Below, piece after piece: positions 1,982 to 32,824 of a stretch of DNA of 64,000 nt (positions within the stretch are counted from its first letter, which is position 1; each line of letters begins with the position of its first letter). The notes beneath the pieces are model-generated. The model was not told where the DNA came from. It saw nothing but the letters and a program-made list of their open reading frames with translations, and did not search any database. Position numbers and translations under genes: made by a program. The DNA comes from an uncultured Nitrososphaeraceae archaeon. Its GTDB lineage: Archaea; Thermoproteota; Nitrososphaeria; Nitrososphaerales; Nitrososphaeraceae. The stretch covers positions 69,152-133,151 of the forward strand of contig CAVXZB010000041.1 of NCBI GenBank assembly GCA_963765895.1. The letters are read 5' to 3'.

Positions 1982-1999
1982 TTTTTCGGGGCCGAAAAA
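1982..1999. promoter_or_regulatory. Palindromic motif copy 1 (TTTTTCGGGGCCGAAAAA)
   Basis: One mismatch to TTTTTCGGCGCCGAAAAA; no credible gene overlaps it. Confidence 0.7.
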
Positions 2000-2232
2000 T
2001 TGAACCCATCATTGAACGCTACTCTTCGCATACTCATATTGGTTGTCAGCATAAGTGTATGAGAATTGTCAACATGATGCACTCAATTGCAGGATAGAAA
2101 ATGTTATTGGCGCTATCACTACTTAGCTACTCTCATAAGTAAAGTTTCTCATCTGAAGATATAAAACACTTTTTGCGTAATTCTTGTACGTAATAAGGAT
2201 TAAATTCTATTCTATCCTTATGACGGTATTTT

Positions 2233-2936
2233 ATGTCTCATAACAACAAACAGACAAGTGTTCCTAAATCTTTAAAGGATTTCAAATCCACCTCACCACA
2301 CTTTGGCAATCATATGTCATACTTCGAACTCAATCCAGCTATTCGTAATATAGGATTTTTCAATTTTTTTGAGAAACTGGCAACAACAAAAGAATTGAAA
2401 CACCTGATCAGTAGTGCAATCGGATTAGGAGAAAAATGAAGGAGCTATACAGTAAATGGCCTTCTGCATATGAGCTGATGCCTGATGACTTTTATCTAGA
2501 TAATAGGCTTATGATATATAGTAATGGTCAGCCCCTACATGGTACTAATGAAACATATCTGAAGAATGAATGGAGTTTGCCTAAAAGTATGCATCCTAAT
2601 TTCAGTAAAGCAATGGAATTTAAAAAAACTCTTGGAGAAAAACTACCTGAAAACGACGATGATATACTTGTGATTTATGCTAATACTGAGACTCTCGATA
2701 CAATAGGCCATTCATCTACTTGTATACTATAGATGGGAATATTTCATTTCAGCCCACCTTTTGATTTTAACCAGCATGGAGATACTCTTGTCGTTACAAA
2801 AGTGCAATGGGTTCTATGTCGGACTCGTTTGCTTATAAGAACTCCAAGTCCATATCAAATACACATACAGTGTTACCCAATGATAAAGCCACTATCGAAG
2901 AAATTAAGAAATTTCTTAATCCTTAATTCTTATTAA
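2233..2936 (+). pseudogene. C-terminal part of an LCAT/PGAP1-like alpha/beta hydrolase, fragmented
   Basis: Motifs in order across frames: TSPHFG, WPSAYELMP, GDTLV, HTVLPND..IEEIKKFL; GxSxG part is missing. Confidence 0.5.
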
Positions 2937-3281
2937 TACCTAGATGGTATCTTTCCTTCTCTTATCTATTAAATAATAACAAATTCAAGATCAATTACTA
3001 CGATTAGGGCTTCAATTGTTTTACATAGAGGCAAGTTATTCACGATCTTTGGTACTAGTTCAAATGCGGACCAAAGCAAACCATACAACTCTCTTAAACA
3101 GATCAAATGCGGCTGACTCAAATGAACCACGGATACTATCTATATTGGAGGATGATCTTTAGGAAATGTTAATTAAGTCTACACTTGAACCCCTTTATGT
3201 ACAGGAACTAACCCCTTTGGATCCAAATCAATCTTGTTCATTTAATTAGGCCCACCATCATAATACAATTAGAAAACTAGA

Positions 3282-3475
3282 GTGGCTGTTACAGAAGAAC
3301 AGGACCATTTATCTCAGTTTATGTATAGCCTCAAGGCCCCTGTGACAAAGAAGCAGTGGCCACGAAGACTTAAAGTGTTGTTTGACTTCTTAAAAATCGA
3401 TGGAACTTTAGATGATCAGGCAAGACATTTTTGTACTCCAAGCAAGGCAGGATCCCCGTTGGGCCCAGTCCAGGT
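3282..3475 (+). pseudogene. N-terminal relic of a tyrosine integrase
   Basis: FMYSLKAPVTKKQWPRRLKVLFDFL resembles the N-terminus of thaumarchaeal integrases, including 21715-23022; no catalytic domain follows. Confidence 0.55.
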
Positions 3476-3545
3476 CGGTTTATGTACCGATATGTGTGGT
3501 CAGATATTTATGACGCTCTATAAGTGTAATATTGTCAACGTAATA

Positions 3546-4580
3546 TTAGGAAGAAAATAAACCTCTCCATACGAACGGACCTCGCAACTTTTGTTTTGCA
3601 ATCGATTCCATTTGCATTGGTGCAAGTTCTGAATCATATATGTAACCTATTGAGTGATGATCAATGACACTTGCGGGAGTAGTCATTCCTTTCCATGGTT
3701 CCATTGGATCATTAATATTGTGTCCTTGTGGCCCACCTATGTTAGGTACATAGCCTTCAGTAGGATGTTGTTGTTGCCATTGAGCCCACAGACGATCGAT
3801 ATTACAGTGATGTAGAAAGAAAACTGGGTCATTAGGAGAAGTGCTCCAGAACATACTTCCTGCATCGTTAAACTCTTGTGGCGTGCCACCTGAAACCCAC
3901 AGGTGTACACGATTATGAATATTTCCATCTCCATACCATCCCTCTAATCTGTTACGAAAGCTTGGTTGGGGAACAACAGGATCAGCATCAGTATTAGTCA
4001 TCCATGGAGGACTATCATAAGGAACGACTTTGAGAGCATCCGTAACCTGTTCAGTAGTTGGTAATGTTGGAACCAACTTCGCAAGCCCTCTTCTTAAATA
4101 TGGCTGTGGATTGGGTTCGTCAACATCATTTATGTTAAGGTTCCATTTTCCAGTATCGTATGCGAAAGGTCCAGTCATCACCTTATTATTATCAGAGGTA
4201 CCGCTTCCTCCCATGAAGTCATTATCCCAAATAGATGAATCAATTTCATTATCAACAGTCCAGTCCCAATAAGGTAAAGTTACACGCTGATCAATTGATT
4301 GCAAGTCTTTCTCGAATCTGCGAATGAATTCTCGGTGCCATGGAAGAAAGGCTGGTCCCTGGTGAGCGGACATTGGGCTTGTCGATATCATCAACATTCT
4401 TGCGGAATGAATTACTACATAATCATCGTACTTGTTATTTGATGGAGGATAGAGTTGGCTTGGGCTTTGTTTTAATGCAAGTACCGCATTGGTGAACGCT
4501 TTCCTCTCGCCAGGAGATAATTTTGCCTGATCTCTTCTAATTATTAATCCATTTTTGCTATCGCCCATTTGCATTTGCAT
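3546..4580 (-). CDS. Tyrosinase (type-3 copper protein)
   Basis: CuA: H..AHQGPAFLPWHR; LPYWDW; CuB: HNRVH..SPNDPVFFLHHCNIDRLW. Confidence 0.93.
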   Translation of the reverse strand: MQMQMGDSKNGLIIRRDQAKLSPGERKAFTNAVLALKQSPSQLYPPSNNKYDDYVVIHSARMLMISTSPMSAHQGPAFLPWHREFIRRFEKDLQSIDQRVTLPYWDWTVDNEIDSSIWDNDFMGGSGTSDNNKVMTGPFAYDTGKWNLNINDVDEPNPQPYLRRGLAKLVPTLPTTEQVTDALKVVPYDSPPWMTNTDADPVVPQPSFRNRLEGWYGDGNIHNRVHLWVSGGTPQEFNDAGSMFWSTSPNDPVFFLHHCNIDRLWAQWQQQHPTEGYVPNIGGPQGHNINDPMEPWKGMTTPASVIDHHSIGYIYDSELAPMQMESIAKQKLRGPFVWRGLFSS

Positions 4581-4668
4581 ATTCTATACTTCTTCTATGA
4601 CAGGGTGTTAATAAAGAAGTTGTTTTTAGCTGTGTTTTTCTAATTCGATAATCTATCTTATCCACGAA

Positions 4669-4686
4669 TTTTTCGACGCCGAAAAG
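4669..4686. promoter_or_regulatory. Palindromic motif copy 2 (TTTTTCGACGCCGAAAAG)
   Basis: About 90 bp upstream of the tyrosinase start. Confidence 0.65.
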
Positions 4687-4994
4687 AGTATAGTCTGGGT
4701 ATAGTAACGTGGTACTATAATCTTTTATTGCATTTAAGCAACACAACATAATCATTTTTTGAAAGCATACAGTTTTCTCTTGTTTTAAGTACCTGTTATG
4801 ATCAGATTTATGACGTACTATAAGGCATCTTATTGACATATACCTTCATGATTGAGAATTGAAGGTGATCATAAGTGTATAATGAAAAAAATCTCTAGAT
4901 TAGTGCGTTATCAATCAATTAGCCTAACGATTGGACATTTATTAAATCAATATAGTACTTGATTTCAAATTATAACAAAATCGCGATCTCATAT

Positions 4995-5860
4995 CTACTT
5001 GATAACTGTAAATTGTTCTAGAATTTGTCCATTAGCTGACTTGGCATAGACATCTGCCCTTTTGCCTTGAATTACAAAAAGGTAATAACCATACCCTTTA
5101 TCGTATGCAAAAGCGGTCCATTTATTTTTAGATTCTTCAAAGCTATACAGCATTCTTCCACCAGCACCACTTATAATATATAGATCTGTCCACGATCCTG
5201 ACGAAAATCTAAACCTGAAGAGGTTATTATGGGTTCCTGATCCAAGCCGCTGTACTTGATAGGAAGTGTCCTCTGCATATTATGGGAGTGGCCTTGAATT
5301 ACAAAATCAATTTGACCACTATCAAATAACGGCTGGTATGCGTCTCTTGCCTTCCTTTCTGGTCTGTGTCCGCCTTTCAATGTATAAAGAGGTTTATGGA
5401 CCATCACCAGAATCCAATCTACTTTATGTTCATTGTCCCTCAATCTGACTGCTTCTTCTAATTTGGACTTGAACCAGATAAACTGGTCCAATTTTAAGTC
5501 CCAATCTGGATCCTGACTATTCATACATATAAAGTAAATATTGTCTATTTGTTTTGCTGTCATCCACTCTGTTATATCAAAATATTTTTCAAGTTGTTCC
5601 TTAACATTATCACTTTCGTTTTCTTTGTCATCATGGTTTCCTATGGAAAAGATTGTCTTTTCTTTCAACCCAAAGGATCTAAATATATCAATAAAACAAG
5701 TCGCATCAAGTTCATAGGATGAATCACCCAAGAATAGATTCGCATCAGGCTTTTCATTGACTATATTTTGAAATGTTTTCTTCGCATCATCGCTACAAGT
5801 CGTATCTCCTACCGCAGTAATTAAAACCTTTTTGTGCGTATTATCAGACTGGTTCATCAT
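4995..5860 (-). pseudogene. Calcineurin-like metallophosphoesterase (purple acid phosphatase-like), frameshifted near 5171
   Basis: GD, LGDSSY, IGNHD, VHKP, QGHSH motifs; C-terminus continues in another frame as SGAGGR..GYGY..EQFTVIK*. Confidence 0.8.
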
Positions 5861-5890
5861 CTATTAATTGACCGTTATTGCTGACCATCT

Positions 5891-6838
5891 GGCTGTGTAG
5901 AAACCATCTCATACAGTCAAAGCTTTGTAAGAGTATAATACCAATAGTCTATTGAAAGAATCAATGTACGTCAGACTTGCAGGTACTATGTTCCGTGTTT
6001 TGAAGCATGCAAGGATTCCTCTATTTTCTAACAGGAAAAGTAATCACATATTTACAATATGGCAGCACATAGTTCTAGTTGCTATACGACAGTATGAAGG
6101 TAAGAGTTATAGAATGTTTGTCGAGTGGTTAATTGAAGCCTATTACCTAAGGTCATTTCTACGGTTGTCACGTATTCCTCATTTTACAACATTGCAAAAG
6201 TTTACAGATAGAATCAATAATTCATTGCTTGAAAAGATAATTTCGTCATTCATTGTAATTAGTGGTACCAAGCATATCTTTGCAGGAATAGATTCAACAG
6301 GATTTAAGATAACTCATGCATCACAATATTATACTGATCGAACAGAATTGAGAAGAAAATATGCGAAATTATCTATTGGAGTAGATGTATTACAACAAAT
6401 CATATGTACAATTAAGATAAGACGAGCTCCAACAAGGCATGATAATGTAGATTTCAGGCCAATTATAACAAGGACATCAAATATTCTTCCATTATCTGTA
6501 GTTACAGCTGATAAGGGTTACGATAGTGAAGATAATCACCTTCTCGTAAGAGAGGACTTACATGCATTCAGTATTATTCCTGCTCGATATGAACATGTAC
6601 CGATGTGGAGAACACATGGTAAGTACAGAAAGCAGATGAAGCGTGGTTACTCCAAATTGCTGTACAATCAACGAAACAAAGATGAAACCATAATATCAGT
6701 TATAAAACGACTATTTGGAGAGAATCTTATGTCTAGATTGACTAGAATGCAGAACAGAGAGTTATCATTTAGATGTATCACCTACAATATGCATAGACTG
6801 ACTAATCTTGTAATATTGATGATGTTTTCTACATAGCC
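5891..6838 (+). mobile_element. IS5-family element, apparently intact
   Basis: TIRs GGCTGTGTAGAAACCATC / GGCTATGTAGAAAACATC; 8-bp target duplication GACCATCT (5883-5890, 6839-6846). Confidence 0.92.
5952..6836 (+). CDS. IS5-family DDE transposase
   Basis: PHFTTL, IDSTGF, ADKGYDSE, YNQRNKDET..SVIKR motifs. Confidence 0.92.
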   Translation: MKESMYVRLAGTMFRVLKHARIPLFSNRKSNHIFTIWQHIVLVAIRQYEGKSYRMFVEWLIEAYYLRSFLRLSRIPHFTTLQKFTDRINNSLLEKIISSFIVISGTKHIFAGIDSTGFKITHASQYYTDRTELRRKYAKLSIGVDVLQQIICTIKIRRAPTRHDNVDFRPIITRTSNILPLSVVTADKGYDSEDNHLLVREDLHAFSIIPARYEHVPMWRTHGKYRKQMKRGYSKLLYNQRNKDETIISVIKRLFGENLMSRLTRMQNRELSFRCITYNMHRLTNLVILMMFST

Positions 6839-7497
6839 GACCATCTACATGATTTAAATATTTTCAAAATCAGCAGATCTGCAATTGTCTATTAAACAAT
6901 GAGATTGAAATTATGAATGTGTATATGGAATGTGTGTATGGATAGTAAAGCAAAACACAGGATGTATTGATAAACAAGTTCATGATATCAAAAGTTATTG
7001 GCTAAAATACAAACTTGATGACTTTGGTGCTTATATTCATACAATGTTTGACGTCATATGAAACCTTTGAGATTTCAAGCTGAGACCATCGTTGGACTTT
7101 ATAATCCAACTCAACAAATGCTCAAATCTGAACCAGGTTCTAAACGGCATGCAACCAGCTAGACGCTTTGATTAGGTTATTTTCCAATAGTGCAAACTAA
7201 CTAAACCTCTCAAAGGAATAAGAATATTCCACACACTACAAGCTTAAAATTTCGGATTCATGTTTGCGGCCCCAGAACGTCACACGTAGAGTAAATATCG
7301 ATATTATCATTATTCAGTAGAATTGAACATTATTTGTACAATAATAAAAATTAGACGACTGCATCTATTCTCCAATACGATTCAAACTACTGTTTGGCCT
7401 ATCTTTATTGCTGCACCCATATTCATGTCTCACACACCGTGTTTGGACATGATCTGTTGCTGTAATTGAGCTATTTTGCTATCCATATCTTGAAAAT

Positions 7498-8107
7498 TCA
7501 AATTAACCAACCTTTTCGTGGTTCATCTAGCAACTTTTCTTCAATTGGTTTATTGTAATTTGGGTCGTTAGTTTGTTGTGGTTCTCTTCCTTCTTTAATT
7601 AGTTCGACTAAGATGGCAGCAGCCAGTCCTACATGCCTATCTATCTGAAACCACTTATCTTTGTTGTCATCTAGTTCCAACAGAACTACTGCCCGTATAA
7701 AAGCATGCCAAACGACATATCCTTCTACCTTGCTATCCATCATGTGGATCTTGTCACCAACTGGTCTTCTAGGTTGACCCTTATCATCTACGCCATTATC
7801 AAAGAGAAGGCCTTGAGCAAATAATTCAAAAGCCTTTTGTTGTAATTCTATGTTGCTGTCAAAATATTTCTGGATTATTCTCGTAATATTAGATGATAAT
7901 AGCCTGACTAATTCTTTGCATGGAATTTTTAAATTCAGTATCCACACTACCTTTTCGAGCACAAAAATAAAAAAGATCAAGCATCTTACCATATGGATCT
8001 ACTTTAAGCATAGCCTCCGTAATGTCATCGGGAGAGCTAAACAAAAAGAAATTATCGTATTCATACCAAAAATCCATTGCATTTTTCTCTTCAGAACTAT
8101 TCATCAT
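7498..8107 (-). pseudogene. Hypothetical protein split by a frameshift (7889-8107 + 7498-7992)
   Basis: Overlapping same-strand ORFs join into one protein; motifs FAQGLLFD, KIHMMD, WHAFIRA. Confidence 0.55.
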
Positions 8108-9234
8108 GTTACCCTATTGTGAATTTCTATTCTTAATAAGGATTTAGGCGATCAATGATACTGCGATCATATTAATAAAATACAATAATGAATACAAAAC
8201 TGAAAAAATATAGTAGTATGGATTAATTCTGAATGAATAAATAAATAAATATTAATGAGATAGATTGATATCTAAAGTCGAAACGTAATGCGAATAAATC
8301 ATTACAAAATATATTGACCGAAGGCTTTAGATTTCTCGGATTATTGAATCTTGCTTAATTTATTACATACGTATTCTTCAAATATTTCATGGAATTTTGA
8401 GGAGATAATAAACATGGAAATTATTAGAAAATCACTAGTTCAGTTCTATTTGATATTCTCCAATAATTCCATGACAGTATTGTACGGTTTGCGCCGTGTG
8501 TTATTATTGGGTGTACACGTTCATTTTCTAGCAAACGATTTCAATAGATGTATAGTGTTATACGATAATGACTGAAGGTAAATAATGTCATTAGTTCTTT
8601 TATAAACTGTGTTGTTGGACAAGACATGATCCAAAAGTCAAGCATATACGTGTATCATTTGTGACATCCATTATTGACAATTTTCTGCTATCATATTAAA
8701 ATCCATATCTGATCTTTTATTTGTTGAATATAAAGCCATGGTATAAAGGTCCGATTGTAGAGACATAATAAGTGACTTTGTGATTAGGAATCTAACAAAA
8801 TGAGTCATCAGAGGATCTAATTATACAAATATAAGATTTCTGTTCTAAGAATATAGACCAATTTCTATTTCTATTATCTGTTCTAAGGTAGCTACTTTAT
8901 TACATGGATTGCAAGCTAAATTTAGCTGTTATACATTCAACGGATTTACCTCGTATTAATGTCTGGAAAATGTCAGAAAAGTTGTGCCAGCTAAAATGTC
9001 ATATGCTATACGCTATTGCAATGTTCTCGTTTCATCGAAATGTCATCCAAGCTGAAAATTACTCGATCTAGGCAAAAGAATCAGACTAACGATACCACAT
9101 GAGTAACGTGTGCACGTAAAGTGGTACATTTATTAGACTAGTCTAGATTGATGTTTAGGATTCTTGCTAGATGTAGAGGAAGATTCCTTTGCTCATACGC
9201 TACGACCTTTGGCCACAGATTGATCACAATATCT

Positions 9235-11374: not shown

Positions 11375-11392
11375 TTTTTCGGCGCCGAAAAA
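11375..11392. promoter_or_regulatory. Palindromic motif copy 3 (perfect TTTTTCGGCGCCGAAAAA)
   Basis: In the divergent intergenic region between the Kelch gene and 11601. Confidence 0.8.
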
Positions 11393-13373: not shown

Positions 13374-13391
13374 TTTTTCGGCGCCGAAAAA
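13374..13391. promoter_or_regulatory. Palindromic motif copy 4 (perfect; extends to ATTTTTCGGCGCCGAAAAAT)
   Basis: Intergenic, about 275 bp upstream of 13098(-) and about 930 bp from parB. Confidence 0.8.
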
Positions 13392-13764: not shown

Positions 13765-14187
13765 TTAATCCTTGCTAATAATTTCTGCCATCACATGCTT
13801 TATCAAGTCTTCACTCGAAACTGGTTTTTTTATGAAGCATTTTACATCGAGCTTAGGAAATTGCTCCTTTAGAGAATCATAGTACTCCTCAAATGCAGTT
13901 ATGAAGCAGACCTTTATATCAGAATCCTTTTTCCTAATCTTTTCGTATAATTCAAAGCCATTAATTTTAGGCAATCGAATATCAATAATTACGAGATCAT
14001 AATACTGTGGCTGGAAGGTGGACAGGGCTTTAAATGGGTCACTATAAAATGTCACATGAAATCCTTGATCTTCTAAACAAGTTTTAAAAAATAAACTAAC
14101 ATCTTGTTCATCATCAATAACCAATATTCTTGGAATATACTTATCTTTTATCAAGAGATCAGCTGCTAGGTATGGTTTATCCTTCAT
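13765..14187 (-). CDS. Stand-alone response regulator receiver protein
   Basis: ILVIDDE, DLVIIDIRLPKINGFEL, ITA, IKKPV. Confidence 0.92.
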   Translation of the reverse strand: MKDKPYLAADLLIKDKYIPRILVIDDEQDVSLFFKTCLEDQGFHVTFYSDPFKALSTFQPQYYDLVIIDIRLPKINGFELYEKIRKKDSDIKVCFITAFEEYYDSLKEQFPKLDVKCFIKKPVSSEDLIKHVMAEIISKD

Positions 14188-14316: not shown

Positions 14317-15207
14317 TTGTCAAAGGAACTGACGACCTCTAACACAACAAGGGGATTGTTAGCAGATATCGATATTTATCAAATTAGACACCCACCTACT
14401 TTTTATAGATCTACTAAAACTAATCTAATGTTAGGGACCAAACAGCTAGCTGAACTTTCCAAATCCATTGTACGACAGGGCCTTTTGCAACCAATCGTTG
14501 TCAGAGCAAAGGCAAGAACAAATCACTTTGAAATAGTTTCGGGAAACCGCAGATATGAGGCGTGTAAAGCATTAGGTTGGCGAAAGATGGTTTGTCATGT
14601 TCTAGAACTAGATGATAGAAATGCATTTGAGGTAACATTAATTGAAAATATTCAAAGGGAAAATCTTGATCCAATAGAAGAAGCTCGTGCATTTAAAATT
14701 TACGTAGAAGAGTATGGATGGGGTGGAATATCTGACTTGGCATCGAGATTGGGTAAGAGTGCTAGCTATGTAGATAAACGTATAAAGCTTTTGGACTCAC
14801 CTGCCGAGATAATCGAAAGCTTATCTAATCATTCAATTAGTCCTAGTATTGTTGAAGAATTAAGCCCCATCAATGATCAGAAAGTAGTAAGTGATCTTGT
14901 TGAGATGATAAATAAAAAAGGACTGTCTTCTAGGAAGGTACGAAAGCTAGTAAAGGAATACAAGAAAGAATCCTCTCTAGAGATCTATAATTTTCATGAC
15001 ACCGAGGACAAAATCGTAGATATCGATAGAATGGTCCAAAATTCTTTTGATAAATCGATAGTTGCATTGAGAATCGCCGCCAGCAGAGTAGCTACAATAG
15101 TAGAGAGTATGGAAGACAACTGGATTATACATGAAATCTTAATGCAGCATAAAATGATGTTGCATTCGCAGATAGATGTGTTAATAAAAGAAAAGAAAAA
15201 GCTTTGA
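14317..15207 (+). CDS. parB: ParB/RepB/Spo0J-family protein
   Basis: GLLQPIVVR, EIVSGNRRYEA (CTPase motif), IENIQRENLDPIEEARA, HTH (ISDLASRLGKSASYV). Confidence 0.88.
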   Translation: MSKELTTSNTTRGLLADIDIYQIRHPPTFYRSTKTNLMLGTKQLAELSKSIVRQGLLQPIVVRAKARTNHFEIVSGNRRYEACKALGWRKMVCHVLELDDRNAFEVTLIENIQRENLDPIEEARAFKIYVEEYGWGGISDLASRLGKSASYVDKRIKLLDSPAEIIESLSNHSISPSIVEELSPINDQKVVSDLVEMINKKGLSSRKVRKLVKEYKKESSLEIYNFHDTEDKIVDIDRMVQNSFDKSIVALRIAASRVATIVESMEDNWIIHEILMQHKMMLHSQIDVLIKEKKKL

Positions 15208-15249: not shown

Positions 15250-16150
15250 TGAATTCATCTTCTTCTTCCTTTGTTACTATTTTGTGCCAAGCATCTGTGA
15301 ATCCATCAGAATATGCAACATTTCCTGGTGAAACAGGAATTGGCGTTTGATATTATAAAAATCATGAAATTCCAATCCTCTTCCACATCGGTAATAATTT
15401 CAGATATTCTATTCATAGCAATCCTTAAGGCATTGATAGTCTTATCAAATGCTCTTTTACCTATCAAAATATGTCTATTATAAATCTGATTAGCATATAT
15501 CTCAGTGCTGACATCTCTGTAAAGGCGTAAGAAATTACGAGTTTTCCTTAAAGACATCTGTCTATTAATTATGAGTGAAGCGAGCCTTGACTATTCAGAA
15601 TTATCCCTTACTGAAAGCAATTCCTCTGCAATACTTGTTGACAATTCCTTATTTGTTAGAGCTTCAAGAACTTCTGCTGGAAGATCAAGTAATTTGATGC
15701 GCTTGGAAATATAACTTATACTTTTACCAATTCGACACGATAAATCTGATATCCCTCCCCAACCAAAATTTGAGGTATACATTTTGAAGGCCACCCTTCA
15801 TCCATTGGATTATAGATTCTTTTGTATATTTTCTAAAAAACTAATCTCAAATGCATTTCTGTCGTCACATTCTACAATATGACAAGATATCTTTTTTGAA
15901 ACCCAAGGTTTTATATGCCATAAACCTCCTGTTACCCGCAACAAGTTCAAAATCGGAATCCATGGGCCTAACCAAAATTGGTTGTAGTAATCCCTTTTGC
16001 ATAATTGAAGCCGAGAGATCTTCAATATTTGTCACATTTCTATGAATATTTTGCGACTGCCTAAGTTTTGAAGATCTATGTCTTCAAAAAAAAACTAGAG
16101 GAGACTAGGGAAGATATCTGGCGTACGTTTTTGGCATCTCGATTCCCACA
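15250..16150 (-). pseudogene. Second ParB/Spo0J paralogue, convergent, multiply frameshifted
   Basis: Fragments KGLLQPILVR, ELVAGNRRF, AFEISFLENIQ, GWGGISDLSCRIGKS, AFDKTINALRIA are colinear with 14317-15207. Confidence 0.85.
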
Positions 16151-18157: not shown

Positions 18158-18175
18158 TTTTTCGGTGCCGAAATA
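18158..18175. promoter_or_regulatory. Palindromic motif copy 5 (TTTTTCGGTGCCGAAATA)
   Basis: About 255 bp upstream of the S10 peptidase. Confidence 0.65.
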
Positions 18176-21714: not shown

Positions 21715-23022
21715 TTGTTTCTAAATTATGATAGATATATGATAGGAAGATCTTATCAACTATTTAAAGGCGCTCTCCACTCGGACAAAACATTTCAGTT
21801 ATATAAGCAATATTTATGGCATTTTTGTAATTTCATTGGGTTGACAACTGAGGAGATTGTTTCAAAATATACGGCGGATAATATCAAAGAAGTGATACGA
21901 TTACAACGTATAGCCGAAGATTATGTCTTGTTCTTACAAGCCAAAATAAGTAACGGAGAGATTACTGCAGGAACTGGTCATAGCATGATCCCTCCTGTAA
22001 AGTTGTTTTGCGAAATGAACGACATTATACTTAATTGGAAAAAAATAAACAAACTCTTACCGCATGGTAATGGTAATGTAGCCGATGAGGCATACACAAA
22101 GGAACAGATAAAGAAGATGCTAGAACATTCAGACCTGAGAGCCAAGATTCCTATACTTTTTATGGCATCAAGTGGAATGCGATTGGGCGGTTTTGTTGGT
22201 CTTAGGGATGGTGATATACACCCTATCTATGATGAAGTGACAGGCAAAAAAGTAGTTGCGGCTCATGTAGTTGTTTACAAGGGAACAGATGATGAATATG
22301 ATACGTTCATCTCGCCTGAGGCTTTCTCTATATACCAAGAATATCGAAACCTTCGCGTAAAATTTGGCGAAGTAATAACCAAAAAGAGTCCAATACTATT
22401 AAGACGATTTGACATCAGTCCTGATGGCAAGACAGCAAGATTAGATAATACAAAGCCTGTAGCGTTATCGACTGTAACAGGTATAATAAGAAATGTGGCT
22501 TACAAAGCTGGTATCAGGGAAATTTCAGAAAATTATAAAGATAGGTATAACATCAAAATTGCTCATGGTTTTAGAAAGTTTTTCAATACCACTTTAAGCA
22601 GTATTAGAACCAAGGACGGAAGACTAGCAATTGACTTTATCAGAAAGGAAATGATGATGGGTCATGCTTTAATGAATATACATGCATTGGAACAAAATTA
22701 CAATAGGGCGGATAGACCAAAGATGCTACTTGAGGATTATCTGAAGGCAGTATCAGAGCTAACAATATCAGATGAGGAACGTATGAAAGTAGAAGTAAAG
22801 AAATTGCAGACTGACATATCCAGTATGAAATCAGTAGAGATAGAATTATCAGAAAAAGATAAAGAGATTCAATCTATGAAACAAAAATATGAGGAAATGA
22901 GTGTTACACTTCAAAACATTCTAAATGCTATCGGGAGTGTAGAGCAGCCTAGTAAGAACAAAATAGCCAAGCAGCTAATTATGAAAGGAGAATACAAACC
23001 AGATCCCAAATTAATTGTTTAG
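21715..23022 (+). CDS. Site-specific tyrosine integrase/recombinase with C-terminal coiled coil
   Basis: SSGMRLG (R), VYKG (K), HGFRK (HxxR), MMGH, NY (Y). Confidence 0.9.
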   Translation: MFLNYDRYMIGRSYQLFKGALHSDKTFQLYKQYLWHFCNFIGLTTEEIVSKYTADNIKEVIRLQRIAEDYVLFLQAKISNGEITAGTGHSMIPPVKLFCEMNDIILNWKKINKLLPHGNGNVADEAYTKEQIKKMLEHSDLRAKIPILFMASSGMRLGGFVGLRDGDIHPIYDEVTGKKVVAAHVVVYKGTDDEYDTFISPEAFSIYQEYRNLRVKFGEVITKKSPILLRRFDISPDGKTARLDNTKPVALSTVTGIIRNVAYKAGIREISENYKDRYNIKIAHGFRKFFNTTLSSIRTKDGRLAIDFIRKEMMMGHALMNIHALEQNYNRADRPKMLLEDYLKAVSELTISDEERMKVEVKKLQTDISSMKSVEIELSEKDKEIQSMKQKYEEMSVTLQNILNAIGSVEQPSKNKIAKQLIMKGEYKPDPKLIV

Positions 23023-24708: not shown

Positions 24709-24812
24709 ATCGACCTATTATTGCAAGAACTTTACTTTGCTATTATTCCAACTAAGAATAACTCGTATCAATATTTCTAAATGCAGATATCAATAATCGA
24801 TACATACGTGAC

Positions 24813-25283
24813 ATGACCGAGTTGAGTCTTGAAGGCCTGTTTGGGATAGGTGAAGCGATAGGAATTATTGCCACTCTGTTTGTTATATTATACTTTTCAA
24901 GAAAGCAAATGCAGAGTCTCTCAGTAGACATCCAAACAAAGGTTCTCAATGACTTGGATGAGAAGGTTCACAAGATGGCAGAAATCATAATTGAAAAACC
25001 ATCGATGCAAAATGTCATATATAAACTTGAAAAGCCGTCAGAAGAGTTAGCATTTGCGTATTATATCTTGTTTATTTGTTCTCATGCATATTCGATGCGT
25101 CAAAGAAAAGTGCTTAATGAAGATGAATGGACAGGATGGTTGCAGTGGATGAGAAATTGCTTTAAGTATGGAACTTTGAGTGAACAATGGAAACTAATCC
25201 AATCAGAGAGATGGTTCAATCCTGATTTTGAGAATTTCATAAACAAAGAGGTAGAGCCAAAACCAGAGTCTAAATCGATATAA
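24813..25283 (+). CDS. Hypothetical protein with an N-terminal TM helix
   Basis: Clean 156-aa ORF; IGIIATLFVILYFS; Trp-rich C-terminus. Confidence 0.7.
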   Translation: MTELSLEGLFGIGEAIGIIATLFVILYFSRKQMQSLSVDIQTKVLNDLDEKVHKMAEIIIEKPSMQNVIYKLEKPSEELAFAYYILFICSHAYSMRQRKVLNEDEWTGWLQWMRNCFKYGTLSEQWKLIQSERWFNPDFENFINKEVEPKPESKSI

Positions 25284-25543
25284 TCTATTTATTAGTTCTT
25301 TGAGAATACGAACTTATGAAAGTCTTGACTAGCAATGACTAGTAAAAGATAGAGGAGTTGTCGATTAATTACTATAAAAGCTTATAATCTTTATCCAAAA
25401 CTATAGTGTTTGATACACATCATCATACTTGCAATACCATATCTGCTGCTCTGAATGGAGTTATAATCTTCATCCAGTAGGTAGGACAATGTGTAGTTAC
25501 CACCGATATAGGCCCAAAATCAAGTTAGGATTATTGATCTCGC

Positions 25544-26039
25544 TTACCTAATATGCATAAATTCTATAGGAAATATGCATCTGACTATTTTACCAAAGCA
25601 TTCCAAAATAATTGATTCTGGGATAGGAATGTCTTTGTTGATTAATTGTTGAATTCCTATAGCCCTTTTTAGTCCGTCTACTATAAGCCTTCTATTCGAG
25701 TTGTTATCATAGGCAGTAGTAATCTGTACCTGATGGCGCAACAGTGAGGATATGGTTTGCACTAGTCATTTCTGGGTAGTTTGGTTGGATGCAATATTCT
25801 TGTAAAGTAAATATTTCCGCATCCTCGTCTCCAGGCTGTCTACCTTGTTTATATCTAGGAATAATAGAATTGTGCATCAATGATTTCCATCTGCCAGAGG
25901 AGTTTACATTACATTTTCTTGATTTGGAATAGATCAGAAGGTCTGGGATCCAGATCACAGTTATATGATTCTCCACGCCTTGTCCAGATTTGAGGAATTC
26001 GCTATTTGAAACGTCGGCCCATGAACAATCTAAGCTCAT
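25544..26039 (-). pseudogene. Hypothetical protein, frameshifted; weak ParB/Srx-like motif
   Basis: Two overlapping ORFs join; LIVDGLKRAI resembles IxDGxHR. Confidence 0.35.
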
Positions 26040-26207
26040 GTAGTTATGCTTACTTGCCGCTTAGGATTATATATGTCACCAAAGAGAGCACTGAATCCAA
26101 ATCAGAATATTTTATAAAGTTCTGTAAGAGATCCACATATGCTTTTCTATGCTATCTTTTGAAAAGAAAAATTGAAAGTAAAAGGTCAAACAGTGAAATG
26201 AAAACGG

Positions 26208-26999
26208 CTAATAAAACCTTAATTCTTCCAATTTTATCTTGTCTTTAATATTCATAAAATAATCCACGATTTTATCCCTATTGTTTCGTTGTAATTTTTC
26301 AAACTTGGCCACATCATCAAATGTCTCTTTATCGGATAATACATAATCAAGTCCTTGTTCCAGTATCATGTTTAACATTTCTCGATTTGTTAACGCTTCA
26401 TAAAGGTCTTGCTTATTTTTTATTTGAACAGATGAAATATCTTTTCTAGCCACGGCTAAGGAAATTTCTACTGTAAAAGCCATATTAGCCAATTCATATA
26501 AATCTTCAACATTAAACCTTGCATCAGATTTCTTTCCTTTCTCATAAGGACATTCAAATCTGTTTACTACACAGCAAGGATATTGTATAGGAGTATTTTT
26601 ATTATCGTCCTCATCCTTTTCTAATCCTTTGGTGACTAATCTATTGATCCCGATAAATATTGGGTCGTCTTCATCAGGACTCAACAAGCAATGAAAACAC
26701 TTTGTCCTACCATAATTGGGGTTTCTTCTAACTTCCATCAAGTCCAAATAATCAGAATACCATTTCCTTGTTCGGTTATCGCCATCTTTTAGTTCACTTT
26801 CTGTTGGAGAGGTCTGAAATCTATCAAAATCATCAGGAAAATATTCTAGTGCATAAGGTGTTCCTCTGAGTTGTATCCATTCATTTAATGGAATTATTTC
26901 TTTGCCTCTCCAGCGGTTTGAGTCGTTACCGTCACCATTAAAAGAATCAAATCTTTCGAACCTTTTGGATAGGTTACTGATTGATCTTTCTAGATTCAA
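26208..26999 (-). CDS. Hypothetical protein with Cys motifs, coupled to the HTH gene
   Basis: 263-aa ORF; CFHC and YPCC..FECP; overlaps the upstream gene by 26 nt. Confidence 0.7.
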   Translation of the reverse strand: MNLERSISNLSKRFERFDSFNGDGNDSNRWRGKEIIPLNEWIQLRGTPYALEYFPDDFDRFQTSPTESELKDGDNRTRKWYSDYLDLMEVRRNPNYGRTKCFHCLLSPDEDDPIFIGINRLVTKGLEKDEDDNKNTPIQYPCCVVNRFECPYEKGKKSDARFNVEDLYELANMAFTVEISLAVARKDISSVQIKNKQDLYEALTNREMLNMILEQGLDYVLSDKETFDDVAKFEKLQRNNRDKIVDYFMNIKDKIKLEELRFY

Positions 27000-27411
27000 T
27001 ATTTTCTAGTCTCTCCTCTAATGACTTTATGTGCATAATTGATGGGCCTTCCTTAAACAGAGCAAACTTGGCTTCATTACATTCCCTAATTACTTTCAAA
27101 GCTAAAAGCTTGTCTTTTGGTGTTAGGTTGCTATTATTGTTGTTCTGTCCTTTGAATATCTCCCAGCCTTTCCTTCTGACTTCTTCAATTCCATCAATAC
27201 ACTGTTTGTAGTAATATGTCAAATCAGACTTTGCTAGATCAAATACAAATCTCTGCGATAACAGTTTCAGTGCTTTAATATCTCTGCTAATGGTGGAACG
27301 ATCTACTCTTAATTTATCTGCTATCTCCTGCTCAGTCATTGATTGGGCAAGTAGAGAAGCTACTTGTCTTCTTCTTTCTTCAAGATGAAATTTCTTTGTG
27401 TGCATGGTCAT
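26974..27411 (-). CDS. HTH protein, terminase-small-subunit-like
   Basis: EERRRQVASLLAQSMTEQEIADKLRVDRSTISRDIK followed by a helical region. Confidence 0.7.
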   Translation of the reverse strand: MTMHTKKFHLEERRRQVASLLAQSMTEQEIADKLRVDRSTISRDIKALKLLSQRFVFDLAKSDLTYYYKQCIDGIEEVRRKGWEIFKGQNNNNSNLTPKDKLLALKVIRECNEAKFALFKEGPSIMHIKSLEERLENIESRKINQ

Positions 27412-27787
27412 GCGTAAATCGTGTATTAATTATTATAGAATTGGATCTTCTTAAGGATATGGAGATATGACTGGGCTAGTAGCGTTGTGACCTTTCTGCG
27501 TCTATCTTCAATTTTGAAATTGTGCGTTACCAAGATTATTATATGCATTACTCTTTAGTGAAGGTTATGTTTATGCATTTTGTGAAAGCGATGCAATATG
27601 TTGGGGATCTACATGATACAAGCCTCGGGATCCTTCCATGTTGATAGCGGCTAGTGGCTGTATCATTCTGATATGTTAATGATGAGTGATTGAGAAATAG
27701 TCCCCCATAATCCTCTATGACGTAGTTATTTAATTCCAATATTATTCACTTAATTGCAATGTAGTGTCATGAGGTTAAAATAATGCT

Positions 27788-28215
27788 TTAAGCTTGATGA
27801 GTTTGATAGCAATATCTTTGGTTAGGTCCTATCACTGTATACATTTGCGCATTACGATAAGTATCATCTTTCAAACATAACCAAGTCATCAACCTAAGAA
27901 AGAATTCTGTAACGCCTAGGCCAGTTGCCTTTTTAATCCACAGGTGCTTGTGCTTGAAATCACGCTTAGAATTGTCGTTTTTTTGAATCAAGCAGATTTT
28001 CATAAATAAATTTTGATAATAAATATCGGTTTTTCAATCATTTCCTTTCGCGGTAGCCCAATGAGATGATTGAAACAACAATCTCCATTAGTTTCAATAT
28101 CTATCTTGCGTTGCTGCTGATCCCATATCCAAAATGGTTTATTTTTTAATCTCTCATCAGGTAAATTCTGGCTTGTTGTTTTCAGGTAGACCATTTTAAG
28201 ATCTTTGAAAGTTAC
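27788..28215 (-). pseudogene. N-terminal relic of a terminase-large-subunit-like ATPase
   Basis: KPFWIWD..CCFNHLIGLP / HLWIKKATGLGVTEFFLR (degenerate Walker A) ..GPNQ; truncated. Confidence 0.5.
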
Positions 28216-28357
28216 GCTCTATTACTTATTGTGAGACTATGGATTTAGGATTTACTACAAATCTGAATGAACTAATTCAAGATTATGAGCCTCTTTTAAA
28301 GTTCGGATTCAAAGGAAATTCTGAACCAAAACGAAAACTTATTGAAATAACATTAAT

Positions 28358-28763
28358 TTATTCAGGCAGTTTTGACACAGACAAAATATCCTCAACAATC
28401 TCTTCATTTGGTATTCTTTGTAGTAATTTTCTTTTCAATTCCTTTTTATTTCTTATTTTTTCAGGGACGCTTTTTGTGAAACGTAGTATAAAATCAATAA
28501 ATTTAGGATCGTCAATTATAGCATTACTAAATATAGTATTTGCGTTAACTAATGAATCATCATAATAAACTGGATTGATGATGACTGAATTAGATAGATC
28601 GGCCATTCTTAGATCAGCCTCGCTAAGATCAGCCTCGCTAAGATCAGCCTCGCTAAGATTAGCCTCGCTAAGATTAGCCTCGCTAAGAATGGTTCTACTA
28701 AGATTAGCCCTACTAAGAAAAGCCGACCCAAGACCACTAGCATTAGTGACAGGCTGCGTGCAT
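28358..28763 (-). pseudogene. C-terminal fragment of a pentapeptide-repeat protein
   Basis: A(N/D)LSE repeats encoded by 15-bp tandem units at about 28611-28690; the nominal N-terminus lies inside an IS5 end. Confidence 0.8.
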
Positions 28764-28986
28764 GGCCCTGTAGAAACCATATTTTGAATACCGTTAGAGC
28801 TTTGTAGGAGCATAATACAATATGGACGTTGAAAGAATCAACATATGTTATGCTAACAAATACTATGTACAGTGTCTTAAGAAATTCAAGGATACTTTTG
28901 TTTCTTCACCGAAAGAGTAACCATGTCTTCACGATGTGGCAACGTTTAGTATTGTTCATAATAAGATCGTACTAAGGTAAGAGTCA
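28764..28986 (+). mobile_element. Truncated IS5 left end with decayed transposase 5' part
   Basis: GGCCCTGTAGAAACCAT..GAATACCGTTAGAGCTTT..TTGAAAGAATCA closely matches the left end of the 55699-56653 copy. Confidence 0.85.
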
Positions 28987-29052
28987 GGGATCTGTATGCG
29001 TGAAAAGTATCCATAGTCGCAAGATATATCAGTTGCCATATACAATAAGATA

Positions 29053-29343
29053 TTGCATAACAAAATGCAAGCAACATTAATGCTACTACTAATTTTGACT
29101 ATTTGTAGTTCTGCTGCTTTATTTTATAGTACTAATGATATGTTAATGGTATTTGCGAGTAATAATACCTTCAAACATACTAACGTTTCCGATAACACTA
29201 CAGCCAATATTAATTGTGCTAATTTTCAGTACAATGTTAGCTGCAGATCTGTATGCAAACCACCGCAGCAAGCCTGTCCTTCACAAGCAAGCCCTAATGA
29301 CACTTCGGCATACAACACGCTTAAACAGCTTCAAAAACGCTAG
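29053..29343 (+). CDS. Small secreted hypothetical protein (possibly truncated)
   Basis: Signal-like N-terminus; Cys residues; N-x-S/T sequons. Confidence 0.4.
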   Translation: MHNKMQATLMLLLILTICSSAALFYSTNDMLMVFASNNTFKHTNVSDNTTANINCANFQYNVSCRSVCKPPQQACPSQASPNDTSAYNTLKQLQKR

Positions 29344-29397
29344 TTAAAAAACAGAATCAAAAACCAATTAGAGAAAAATAAAATTTTAGAATCTAGG

Positions 29398-29613
29398 TTA
29401 TTTACTTCTATAATTGTCTTTATTGCTATCCCTTGATGTCCTGATAATATCGAAACAAGATATCGTTATAGCAAGAATCAGAGCTGGAACGACTATGGCT
29501 TTGGCCTCTACTTCGGGCAAAAGCTCTGCAGTCAATGCAATGGCTGATAATACAATCACAACCGTACGAAATATATTCCAATGCTTCTTTGTTAATATTA
29601 GTTGAAGATTCAC
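29398..29613 (-). CDS. Small two-TM membrane protein
   Basis: Two hydrophobic helices. Confidence 0.5.
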   Translation of the reverse strand: MNLQLILTKKHWNIFRTVVIVLSAIALTAELLPEVEAKAIVVPALILAITISCFDIIRTSRDSNKDNYRSK

Positions 29614-29654
29614 TAGGATAACAATATTATCATATACTATTTAAGGGACACGGG

Positions 29655-29670
29655 AAACTCTTAATTACCT
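29655..29670 (+). promoter_or_regulatory. BRE/TATA-like promoter
   Basis: AAACTCTTAATTACCT about 30 bp before ATG 29693; near-identical AAATCCTTAATTACCT lies before 32907. Confidence 0.5.
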
Positions 29671-29692
29671 TAACAAGGAAATAAAACACCGA

Positions 29693-31969
29693 ATGATCGA
29701 CAAGGGAACCCAAAAGAAGAAAGCTGAGCCTCCTAAAGATGATCCTTTATTACGTAGCAAACGAGCCATTATTGATAAAATTATCGGAAGTGAAGGACAA
29801 CAATTAGCAGAAAAACGTCTTGCTGCAGTTAAGCAAGCTCGTGAAATGGCAGGTGCCTCAGAGTCGCAAGATTCGGAAGAAGATACTATTACCAGTAGTG
29901 ACGAATCATCGTCATCCTCAACACTAACTTCTCAATCCACGCCTTCTAGTCCAAATAAATGGAAACAATTAGGACCCACAGTAATTCCTAACGGTCAAAC
30001 TTATTCTGATAAACGAGTAAATGTAACAGGTAGAATTACTGCTATAGCAATACATCCAAAGAATCCAAGTACGATATATACTGGAGCTGCTCAAGGTGGA
30101 ATTTGGAAAACCACAGACGGCGGTAATCAATGGATTCCGACATCAGACAATGTGCTCTCGCTTGCGATAGGTGCCTTAGCCATCGATGCAAGTAATCCTG
30201 AAGTTCTTTATGCAGGAACTGGCGAAGGAAATTTCGGTGGCGATAGTCAGTATGGACTTGGTATCATTAAAACAACAAATGGAGGCCAAACATGGGAATT
30301 AAAAGGAATGAATACATTTATTTCGTCTCGCTTTTGCCGTATTGCTGTTAATCCTAAAAACTCAAACCACATTTTTGCCGCGGCAACTTCTCCTGCCTCT
30401 GGTATATATAGAAGCACGGATGCAGGAGAAAGCTGGTCAAGATTAACTAATGGATTACCTTCTTCAGATGCAACGGATATTGTCTTGGATCCAAGTAATC
30501 CGGATACAGCATATGCCGCATTTTGGGGTGAAGGAATTTTCAAAACAACTAATGCAAATACAACAAACCCAACATGGAATAAGCTTAGCGGAGGATTTGC
30601 AACTGGTAACTTTACACGTATTGTTCTTGGTATTTCACAATCTTCGCCTAGTACACTATATGCCCTTATGGCTGACGACAACTATGAAATAAACATGTTT
30701 TATCAGACCAGTGATGCTGGAAATACTTGGAGTCAAATACAACTGGTTAATGCAGATCTGGGTCAACAAGGCTTTTATGATATAAATCTGGCTGTCCATC
30801 CACAAAATGAGAATATTGTATACTTAAGTGGCATATCTTTGTGGAAGGCAACTCGTAATACACATACAAATCATTGGAAGTTCTCTGACATTGGTAAAGA
30901 ATTTCACCCTGATAATCATGCCTTTGCTTTTGACCCAGTCAACCCTGAAATAATTTATGCCGGAAGCGATGGTGGGATATATAAATCCATGGATGGAGGA
31001 AACAAATGGAATGATGGTATCAATCAGGGATTGTGTATAACTCAATTTGAATTTATGGAACAGGATCCAAATAACGAGAAAAGAATAATCGCAGGCACCC
31101 AAGACAATGGAACTGAAAGGTATGATGGGAATTCCCAATTTTATCATTCAGACGATGGTGATGGTGGATTTGTATGCATAGATCCAAACCAGCCACAGAA
31201 CGTTTGGCATACTTATTACAGCCTCAGCCCAGCCTTCTCGTCCCAAGGAGGAGACTTTGGAAGTTGGCAATCACTAGACGGATCAATTTCTGGGGATCCT
31301 TCAAACTTTTATCCTCCAATTGCACTGGATAAGACAAATTCAAATAATATCGCAATAGGAGGCCAAATACTATATTTAGATCACTCAAAAGGAACTGGGG
31401 GCTGGTCTGAACGTATTAATCTAAATCTTCCTCAGAGCGATCTTATATCAGCGATTAATTTTGTTAATACAAAGCTTATCTTTGTGGGAACAAATGAGGG
31501 GCGTGTCTATCGCATAACTAAAAATGGAAATAATTGGACAGTTCATGCTATCCATGCAAGTCCATTTCCTACTGACCGCTATATTTGGGATATTGGTACT
31601 TTGCCTGATGATGAAACAAAGATCATAGTCATTGTGTCTGGATTTGATACACCACATGTATTTCGTGGTGATGTTTCACCGGGTAATAACTCAGCAACAT
31701 GGACGGACATAAGTGGAACTGGAAATGCAAGACTTCCGAATATTCCTGTAAATGCATTAGTAATAGATGAGAACAAGGCAACTACCATGTATGTTGGTAC
31801 TGATGTAGGTGTTTTCCGCACAGCAGATAGTGGCAAAACATGGAAGTGGTTCAGCGAAGGTCTGCCAAATTGTCAAGTATATGATCTGCGCCTAAACAAT
31901 TCCAAAGGCCTTCTTCGTGCGGCTACACACGGTAGGGGTATGTGGGAGAGAATAGTCAAAGACATTTAA
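29693..31969 (+). CDS. BNR/Asp-box (VPS10/sortilin-like) double beta-propeller protein
   Basis: Many Asp boxes: KTTDGGNQW, KTTNGGQTW, RSTDAGESW, KSMDGGNKW, RTADSGKTW; C-terminal ATHGRGMW. Confidence 0.88.
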   Translation: MIDKGTQKKKAEPPKDDPLLRSKRAIIDKIIGSEGQQLAEKRLAAVKQAREMAGASESQDSEEDTITSSDESSSSSTLTSQSTPSSPNKWKQLGPTVIPNGQTYSDKRVNVTGRITAIAIHPKNPSTIYTGAAQGGIWKTTDGGNQWIPTSDNVLSLAIGALAIDASNPEVLYAGTGEGNFGGDSQYGLGIIKTTNGGQTWELKGMNTFISSRFCRIAVNPKNSNHIFAAATSPASGIYRSTDAGESWSRLTNGLPSSDATDIVLDPSNPDTAYAAFWGEGIFKTTNANTTNPTWNKLSGGFATGNFTRIVLGISQSSPSTLYALMADDNYEINMFYQTSDAGNTWSQIQLVNADLGQQGFYDINLAVHPQNENIVYLSGISLWKATRNTHTNHWKFSDIGKEFHPDNHAFAFDPVNPEIIYAGSDGGIYKSMDGGNKWNDGINQGLCITQFEFMEQDPNNEKRIIAGTQDNGTERYDGNSQFYHSDDGDGGFVCIDPNQPQNVWHTYYSLSPAFSSQGGDFGSWQSLDGSISGDPSNFYPPIALDKTNSNNIAIGGQILYLDHSKGTGGWSERINLNLPQSDLISAINFVNTKLIFVGTNEGRVYRITKNGNNWTVHAIHASPFPTDRYIWDIGTLPDDETKIIVIVSGFDTPHVFRGDVSPGNNSATWTDISGTGNARLPNIPVNALVIDENKATTMYVGTDVGVFRTADSGKTWKWFSEGLPNCQVYDLRLNNSKGLLRAATHGRGMWERIVKDI

Positions 31970-32262
31970 TCTTCGTATAATGGTGGTGATGAAATATTAA
32001 TACCACAGGAAGCATCACTCACAAGTAAAATAGGCTCGCCTTTACCAAAGGTTTTGTATACAATATCAATATCAATATCTTCTACGTGAAATTTTTTATT
32101 ACCTATCCATATCAGTTTGAAAGTTTTGCCTATGCGTTGCTTGCACTGCGAAATGAAATGATCGGCCTTTAGTTCATTCGCTATTTCAGTTTCTGTCATT
32201 GATTGGGCTAGTAGAGTTGCAACTTTTCGTCTTCTTTCTTCGATCTCGTATTTATGCAACAC
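31966..32262 (-). pseudogene. Chimeric relic: HTH N-terminus joined to an alpha/beta-hydrolase N-terminal fragment
   Basis: EERRRKVATLLAQSMTETEIANEL (paralogue of 26974-27411), then DIDIVYKTFGKGEPILLVS. Confidence 0.6.
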
Positions 32263-32806
32263 TTATCTCAATATTGCATTAGTCTCCTCTTAAAGTTTAG
32301 CTCTATGCATTTTCAAACACTCATGTATTGATATTACGAGAGGATTTGACAAGTATAACAGGAACTAGAACATATTCATCAAATTCATTTATGATAAATA
32401 AGTTATTATCTGATCGTAAGTAGCTTTACGGATATATTCTTTTGAGCGTATCTAACAGATATGTCTTTCTCCTCACTTGATTCGGTTATAATTCTATTTT
32501 AATTCTGTTTAGTTGCATTAAATATAACAAATACAAACTTAATTATTAAATATAAAATTGGTTAGACATCTGACGCCTTTCGATAGTAACATCTACAAAT
32601 TATAGTTCAGTCTTATTGCCAAAGTTAATTCTGATAAACTTGTATAACATAGATCTTACATCATTTTAGGAGTTCTGTATTCTCAGAGATCACTTCTCAT
32701 GTATAAACAGAATTTTCAGTATTAACGCACTATTATATGCGTATACAAAAGATTGCGGGAGTTATGCTGAACTCATTTCATAATCCTTGGTTGTTGTAAT
32801 AAGAAT

Positions 32807-32824
32807 ATTTTCGGCGCCGAAAGA
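32807..32824. promoter_or_regulatory. Palindromic motif copy 6 (ATTTTCGGCGCCGAAAGA)
   Basis: About 50 bp upstream of the TATA-like box of 32907. Confidence 0.7.

Follow-up and report, generated by a model that had tools for sequence, protein, structure and literature searches.

The question raised by this locus is what an 18-bp palindrome, repeated among the accessory genes of an archaeon, is for. The palindrome lies in a stretch of 64,000 nucleotides (C41:69152-133151, hereafter the window) from an uncultured member of the Nitrososphaeraceae, whose genome (G000) comprises 4.9 Mb in 88 contigs. The answer proposed here, to which we assign a probability of about 0.62, is that the palindrome is a parS-like loading site for an orphan archaeal ParB clamp, the predicted product of a gene at 14317-15207 of the same window. 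An earlier note on this DNA had claimed six copies, two of them perfect and none between 33 and 64 kb; all six were found at exactly the positions claimed, with three mismatches or fewer, two are indeed perfect, and 33-64 kb contained none. In shuffled versions of the window the mean number of matches was 0.01, and none of 100 shuffles reached six. The copies, none of which has a strand, are the following:

1982..1999, no strand: palindromic site with one mismatch; contigs from soil metagenomes bridge it
4669..4686, no strand: palindromic site with two mismatches; the tyrosinase start lies 88 bp further
11375..11392, no strand: palindromic site, perfect
13374..13391, no strand: palindromic site, perfect; left edge of a module formed by the site, a receiver gene and parB
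18158..18175, no strand: palindromic site with two mismatches
32807..32824, no strand: palindromic site with two mismatches; last of an 11-site cluster

In the 18-bp consensus, two 7-bp arms flank a centre of 4 bp. The cluster extends before the window, and contig C41 carries 11 sites, 2-15 kb apart, from position 34,766 to 101,958 (67 kb). Genome-wide, 3, 5, 7, 0 and 18 sites were counted at 0, 1, 2, 3 and 4 mismatches, respectively; given that none has three mismatches and 18 have four, the set of 15 copies with two mismatches or fewer is sharply bounded. Three of the four copies outside C41 belong to one duplicated segment of 2-3 kb, and the other is on C12. Counted independently, 11 of 13 sites fall within 67 kb, i.e., 1.4% of the genome, which is far beyond chance. 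Gene-poor DNA is not sufficient to explain this cluster, because 143 of 201 20-kb windows along the genome are similarly gene-poor. The same region also holds three of the five ParB loci of the genome, and the sites are thereby clustered around three parB copies. The energy of the DNA hairpins that the sites could form is modest (-2.7 to -6.5 kcal/mol), and a cruciform role was set aside on this account. A viral collection contained one exact match; it is part of a phage coding sequence, the phage is unrelated and has no context in common, and the match was taken as chance.

The genes that accompany the fourth site of the window are:

13765..14187, minus strand: single-domain response-regulator receiver gene, divergent from parB
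14317..15207, plus strand: intact gene for a ParB/Noc-family protein of 296 amino acids with ParB_N, HTH_ParB (helix-turn-helix, HTH) and a C-terminal helical hairpin; proposed cognate binder
15372..16101, minus strand: second parB copy, which faces the intact one convergently and is broken by stops and a frameshift

A third parB copy, which is frameshifted, has its end approximately 25 bp away from the cluster's first site. In the intact protein, Pfam ParB_N and HTH_ParB were both detected above their cut-offs, and the TIGR00180 score was 116.9, with a cut-off of 58.45. The nearest solved structures by sequence are Noc and Spo0J/ParB, Noc being the best (E 1e-24), and a weak match to the KorB domain was also observed, together with a structural match to 8qa8/8qa9. 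The predicted structure (mean predicted local distance difference test score, pLDDT, of 75.6; predicted template-modelling score, pTM, of 0.38) resembles Noc and Spo0J/ParB, and the modelled DNA-binding domain superposes on that of Noc at 1.0 Å over 104 columns. A helical hairpin is confidently predicted at residues 228-295 of the C-terminus and is unmatched among the Foldseek hits listed. Residues 1-11 were modelled with low confidence; Noc has an N-terminal membrane-binding helix. The motifs GLLQP (Box I), GxRR (Box II) and EN (Box III) are kept across 19 homologues. Judged by its sequence, the protein is a member of the ParB/Spo0J/Noc family, with the ParB_N fold for hydrolysis of cytidine triphosphate (CTP), Boxes I to III, and then the HTH. 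Nucleotide specificity is reported not to be predictable from sequence (10.1101/2025.10.10.680097). The conserved boxes suggest that the protein is probably a CTP clamp that spreads.

Comparison of relatives revealed that the palindrome accompanies this gene in several arrangements: just after the ParB stop, upstream of parB, or within parB codons. The 16-bp core (at most one mismatch) was present in 67 of 238 family genomes, whereas the reversed control was present in 5; among 251 genomes drawn from the order, 52 showed any site match. Leaving out this genome and a genus designated g12, genomes that have a close ParB (E < 1e-64) were compared with those that do not: two or more sites were found in 15/44 versus 0/168, and at least one site in 27/44 versus 14/168. 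The 168 include six unpublished genomes (G110-G113, G234, G235), none of which carries a site and on which nothing else reported here depends. In g12, sites occur in 25/25 genomes, with 2-32 in each, a close ParB was recovered in 20/25, and in most loci one site lies 10-121 bp after the parB stop. The exact arm pattern was detected within 4 kb of parB in 47/80 loci and the reversed pattern in 0/80; in a second, widespread ParB clade the exact pattern was found in 0/13 loci. The generalised arm pattern came from these same 80 loci, so it is the reversed pattern and the second clade that carry weight. In another genus, the parB copies of single-contig and near-complete genomes are directly adjoined by one or two variant sites. 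One deep clade has the site within parB itself, where the codons spell IR[QR]RI, with the five inner pairs kept in 14/14; the chance of palindromic codons is 1 in 9 per peptide, assuming even codon use, and eight of the 14 peptides, mostly from close kin, have one common variant. The number of ParB matches per genome ranges from 1 to 9, with a patchy distribution. On these comparisons, which are genomic rather than biochemical, a palindromic site is tied to parB in the way that a ParABS system requires.

Members of the second ParB clade, approximately 35-40% identical, are found in most family genomes and have a distinct recognition helix. No such palindrome lies near their loci (G000:C24:41387-42236, L024-L032, L059-L062), and the copy in G000 (C24:41387-42236) appears frameshifted.

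The strongest evidence that the window ParB would read the palindrome is comparative, namely the switching of residue 154 of the recognition helix, K or R, together with base 5 of the site. A total of 118 ParB sequences were examined, and 70 distinct ones with a nearby site formed the set (L277 is identical to L080 and hence not counted separately). Base 5 is G in both arms for 5/7 proteins with R154 and for 2/63 with other residues (Fisher 3.5e-5); 154 ranks best of the 14 helix columns. According to a quick tree of 51 of the 70 rows, from which near-identical K/T rows had been thinned, the five R154/G5 proteins are located on separate branches, and at least three belong to different supported groups. 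Residue 154 aligns with N178 of Caulobacter ParB, which contacts parS and adjoins the specificity residue 179 (PMC7383237, as far as the text is available). The G000 paralogue on C73 also has R154, and a single site of the G5 type is located 144 bp after its stop. Direct binding of ParB to the palindrome is very probable. The earlier note had suggested a binding site for a dimeric protein, and this suggestion is now strengthened, the product of 14317-15207 being the likely binder. As a separate observation, the C73 paralogue and its private site directly precede a cluster that resembles a contractile tail (G000:C73:69185-79800), with putative sheath, tube and baseplate genes, as judged by reading of the open reading frames (ORFs).

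It had also been proposed that the sites lie upstream of accessory genes and define a regulon. In this explanation the palindrome would be a conventional transcription-factor operator controlling the genes downstream. All six sites of the window do precede a start, the distance to the named starts being 82-275 bp (for the relic ORF past site 1982, which starts at 2233, it is 233 bp). The promoter bias, however, is absent across relatives: the fraction of sites within 300 bp upstream of a start was 15/40 (null 0.37) and 6/20 (null 0.41). In this genome it was 5/9 versus a null of 0.40, a slight lean that becomes 7/11 when the relic ORF and the tyrosinase are added (P ~0.10 by hand). Likewise, the sites avoid ORFs, as had been stated, with 72 of 76 (this genome and relatives) outside ORFs of at least 80 amino acids, where the coding expectation is 54-62%; nevertheless, the 69 classifiable sites divide into 39 in tandem, 20 in divergent and 10 in convergent intergenic regions, a split equal to that of random intergenic points. 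No constant spacing was observed, and TATA-like words are near only two of the six window sites. The receiver gene that adjoins parB in 22/80 loci could be taken in favour of an operator, but the genes beside the sites are functionally unrelated. Their labels were in part confirmed: Pfam backs the tyrosinase, Kelch, S10 peptidase and transglutaminase, whereas the LCAT, Phi-1-like and immunoglobulin-like (Ig) assignments had no matching Pfam family at E<=0.1. With orientation and start distances that match random intergenic points, a regulon of upstream operators finds no support, and the operator explanation is very improbable. A sliding clamp, in contrast, would allow the sites to be independent of position; for example, KorB is active at distances between 4 bp and more than 1 kb (PMC11790492).

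Another prominent feature of these sites is that homology between related loci ends at them. When the window was compared with G004:C225, 92% identity was found over 1.9 kb that include the receiver gene and parB. The homology sets in with base one of site 13374; on the other side of that edge, 95 bases are unrelated. On C41 itself, the sites at 50505 and 61017 begin a 220-bp duplication. The breakpoint test included 222 sites, the values being means of 300 random pairings and the expectation the breakpoint rate along the flanks. Among disjoint pairs with one common flank, homology ended at the site in 20.3 of 40.9, with 3.5 expected; in the strictest set, from which parB-adjacent sites and the g12 repeat were removed and at least 85% identity was required, the values were 6.5 of 17.6 versus 0.47. 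Homology between related loci thus breaks at the site approximately 6-14 times above expectation; the breakpoint rate spans coding and non-coding DNA, so that the intergenic expectation may be about twice as high, and the excess survives this correction. As an illustration and not as a test, eight pairs chosen from the breakpoint lists end 0-17 bp from the edge of the site.

The simplest reading of these breaks, we infer, is recombination between identical sites of 18-24 bp, and the sites probably double as points at which accessory DNA is swapped among related soil archaea. The suggestion of a recombination site, made in the earlier note, is partly supported by these breaks, but no linked recombinase was found. 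If the palindrome were primarily a site-specific recombination site, similar to those of integrons or to pdif, that shuffles accessory genes with parB as a passenger or accessory, then the breakpoint excess, the 220-bp duplication, the homology that starts at base 13374 and the 520-bp unit of g12, which is bounded by one site and a second or degenerate one, would all be accounted for. In addition, an intact tyrosine integrase is encoded in the window (21715-23022, plus strand), of 435 amino acids and with visible R, HxxR, H and Y motifs (Pfam E 0.027; at E<=0.001 the Pfam integrase search gave no match on C41). However, no recombinase is among the neighbour families of the 80 parB loci, and integrase matches were obtained in 1/80 parB loci and 2/135 site loci, in a genome with 91 integrase-like places. 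The window integrase has relatives of only 26-41% identity over long stretches in five site-rich genomes; without linkage or a close counterpart, it was rejected as the partner of the sites. Tyrosine-recombinase sites are unlike short arms with a symmetric, conserved centre, and the palindrome is ill-suited to such an enzyme. A pair formed by an empty and a filled site was not found, and the in-gene sites and the covariation of the HTH point to ParB. An explanation in which recombination is primary is therefore regarded as improbable.

A few further searches bear on the mobility of this DNA. C41 carries no tRNA and no att repeat was found on it; since a tRNA is absent, no att-bounded element was drawn. 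Comparison of C41 with itself detected only insertion sequence (IS) copies, parB paralogues and old gene duplicates. Among the matches listed from four low-depth contig sets of soil, none had a joint at one of the sites; contigs drop rare variants, and this result is uninformative.

The palindrome could also be the end of a miniature inverted-repeat transposable element (MITE) or of another non-coding repeat. In g12 a subset of the sites does head a dispersed repeat of 520 bp. Five of six copies of this repeat, however, are without a second perfect end, the flank adjacent to 9 of the 11 C41 sites is not common to any other site in this genome, and sites inside parB codons would be left unexplained by a MITE. 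This alternative, raised in the earlier note, is not borne out in this genome, and we consider it barely credible. The g12 unit itself (L187, L188, L189, L193, L206, L184, ~4000-4540) starts with the palindrome and has a second or degenerate copy at its end. It contains a long hairpin and a conserved minus-strand ORF of about 34 hydrophobic amino acids ending in CRWC, a putative small membrane peptide that resembles a type I toxin-antitoxin component by appearance only.

Several observations weigh against the view that the palindrome is a loading site of an orphan ParB. An exact site is not found within the available flank of 33 of the 80 parB loci, and the covariation has exceptions, i.e., L106 (K with G), L116 and L310 (R with T). 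Related genomes are not independent, so the p-values are overstated. The catalytic E of bacterial GERR is replaced by N, T or H here, and CTP hydrolysis is therefore uncertain. Three other observations leave the function weakly constrained and fit partition as well: in g12 a MinD/ParA-like gene lies directly before parB and the sites are distributed over several contigs; in G017 two sites are 64-71 kb from cdc6; and single-contig genomes have as few as 0-4 sites.

The last three lead to the possibility of a true centromere, at which ParB would load, leaving it to a MinD/ParA-like ATPase or SMC to segregate the chromosome or a former plasmid or island. About ten sites within tens of kb, along with in-gene sites, resemble bacterial parS sets; B. 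subtilis and C. glutamicum have 10 parS sites each, and S. pneumoniae provides a precedent for ParB used without ParA (both in a table of PMC7022226, the part consulted here). The operon order in g12 is kinase, receiver, ATPase, parB and site, and the present genome does encode SMC (C88) and a MinD/ParA-like ATPase (C19). Against this, an ATPase is beside parB only in the g12-type operon (17/80 loci), and the ATPase family is present in 23/24 family genomes irrespective of sites and in 0/16 genomes from other families; the ParB-site pair is found in some of these 16. No ParA gene was found on C41, the ParA/MinD-like genes being only on C19, and the window ParB lacks the ParA-binding motif LG[K/R]GL (as defined in the available part of 10.1101/2025.10.10.680097). 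As regards the origin, cdc6 is on C48 in this genome and not on C41, which also lacks SMC; in G230 the nearest site with at most one mismatch is 470 kb from cdc6 on a 1.8-Mb contig, the single site of G094 and the sites of G019 are also far from cdc6, and many genomes of high completeness have no site. The sites do not appear to be clustered at the origin in most assemblies where this is testable. An essential origin centromere is unlikely and a true centromere overall rather doubtful; a partition role on a former mobile element may yet apply. The MinD/ParA-like ATPase (e.g., L178:6798-7946 and L068:10518-11384) has 1-7 matches in each of the 23 Nitrososphaeraceae genomes, gave none with the same query in the 16 genomes outside the family, and adjoins a receiver gene in the loci read.

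Returning to the proposal of a parS-like loading site, the system can be compared with those already described. Bacterial ParB (Spo0J)-parS of the ParABS systems (PDB 1vz0, 6sdk, 7bnk) has the same ParB_N and HTH with Boxes I to III, palindromes of similar size with A/T arms, about ten clustered sites, and sites beside or inside parB (PMC7022226; PMC7383237). It differs in that bacterial parS is of 16 bp, whereas the archaeal site is of 18 bp with other arms and another centre (PMC7022226). Here, moreover, the ParA-binding motif is missing, no parA is beside parB in this genome, the sites in most testable assemblies appear not to be origin-clustered and are patchily distributed, and the C-terminus is a helical hairpin. 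KorB-OB of the IncP plasmid RK2 (PMC11790492) and VirB-virS of Shigella (PMC10770331) belong to the CTP clamp family; on mobile or accessory DNA, each has roughly a dozen sites at no set distance from genes. The sites here are likewise multiple and variably spaced from genes; on the other hand, they lie in an archaeal island of the chromosome in which conjugation genes were not seen, no KorA-like partner was found, and they also mark homology breakpoints. Noc-NBS (Noc-binding site), an orphan ParB paralogue (PDB 7ng0, 6y93; PMC7383237), likewise is without the ParA motif, and its many dispersed sites are reminiscent of those of g12; however, the window ParB scores 146.3 versus a cut-off of 315 bits for the Noc model, it has A149 and R155 at helix positions equivalent to the Noc Q/K/K/R specificity residues, and the sites of this genome are locally clustered. 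Thaumarchaeal integrative and conjugative elements (ICEs) also have a ParB-like gene in accessory DNA, in hosts that belong to the same archaeal class, but there it follows a TFIIB gene within conjugation modules, and the available text gives no binding site (PMC6563490). TFIIB is not clustered beside parB in the 80 loci, and no conjugation family (VirB4/VirD4) was found among the scanned C41 ORFs, the first 10 kb (1-10 kb) and several short ORFs being outside the scan. The system would work like ParB-parS and KorB-OB, and by the features checked it is neither a chromosomal ParABS nor Noc.

A survey from 2025 showed that archaea have canonical HTH-type ParB proteins in a scattered distribution and seldom with ParA, and regarded a role in chromosome segregation as unlikely; neither a DNA site nor a role is given for these proteins in its available text (10.1101/2025.10.10.680097). 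A literature search, with subscription papers and supplements outside its scope, gave no published site for this ParB family, and nothing stating that parS is a recombination hotspot came up. The new elements are a local cluster without an ATPase, linkage across the order, the in-gene form, the residue-base code and the excess of junctions.

Regarding the mechanism, a ParB dimer would bind the 7-bp arms, bind CTP, close and slide along the DNA, and eleven sites 2-15 kb apart would give a near-continuous coverage of the island. Such a coat would organise or regulate the 70-kb accessory block as one domain and not through single promoters; it is about an even chance that ParB acts here as a long-range organiser or regulator of accessory DNA in the manner of KorB or VirB, perhaps under two-component control. 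The frequent receiver and kinase neighbours (22/80 and 16/80 loci) would suggest control by a signal. A nucleoid-organising site, as the earlier note had also suggested, fits with this mechanism. With regard to the breakpoints, it can be hypothesised that bridging by ParB helps recombination of the sites. A bolder extension, in which ParB gathers site-bearing DNA into a single condensed domain and recombination at identical sites captures and shuffles accessory genes under two-component control, without an integrase, is speculative and, on balance, unlikely.

The island on C41 contains genes for secreted proteins, peptidases and oxidases, as well as IS relics. A DDE transposon is present at 5891-6838 of the window and at about 50 other places, with dozens of near-identical copies genome-wide, and many genes of the window are broken, such as Kelch, a KAP NTPase and the relic at 2233-2936. 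A gene with a PriX domain is located at 41552-42106 (minus strand), and about 16 PriX-like places exist in the genome; this suggests relics of plasmid-like elements just past the last site. Elsewhere, G000:C48:2300-7500 is very GC-rich in a genome of 35% GC and is probably foreign or mis-binned, and next to an integrase-like gene, at G000:C78:61936-62028, ARAGORN called a tRNA whose anticodon is CTA and whose label is Pyl.

The Nitrososphaeraceae are key soil nitrifiers with large accessory genomes, and this locus raises the question of how they organise that DNA. It yields a predicted site along with natural variants and a residue-base code (T/G at base 5 paired with K/R154), with which binding, CTP use and spreading are testable together, as was done for ParB and Noc (PMC7383237, in the part available). 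If parS-like sites are indeed rearrangement hotspots, a partition-type clamp would thereby be tied to genome evolution in a new way; and if the gene-accretion device outlined above is real, it would build islands of soil ammonia-oxidising archaea.

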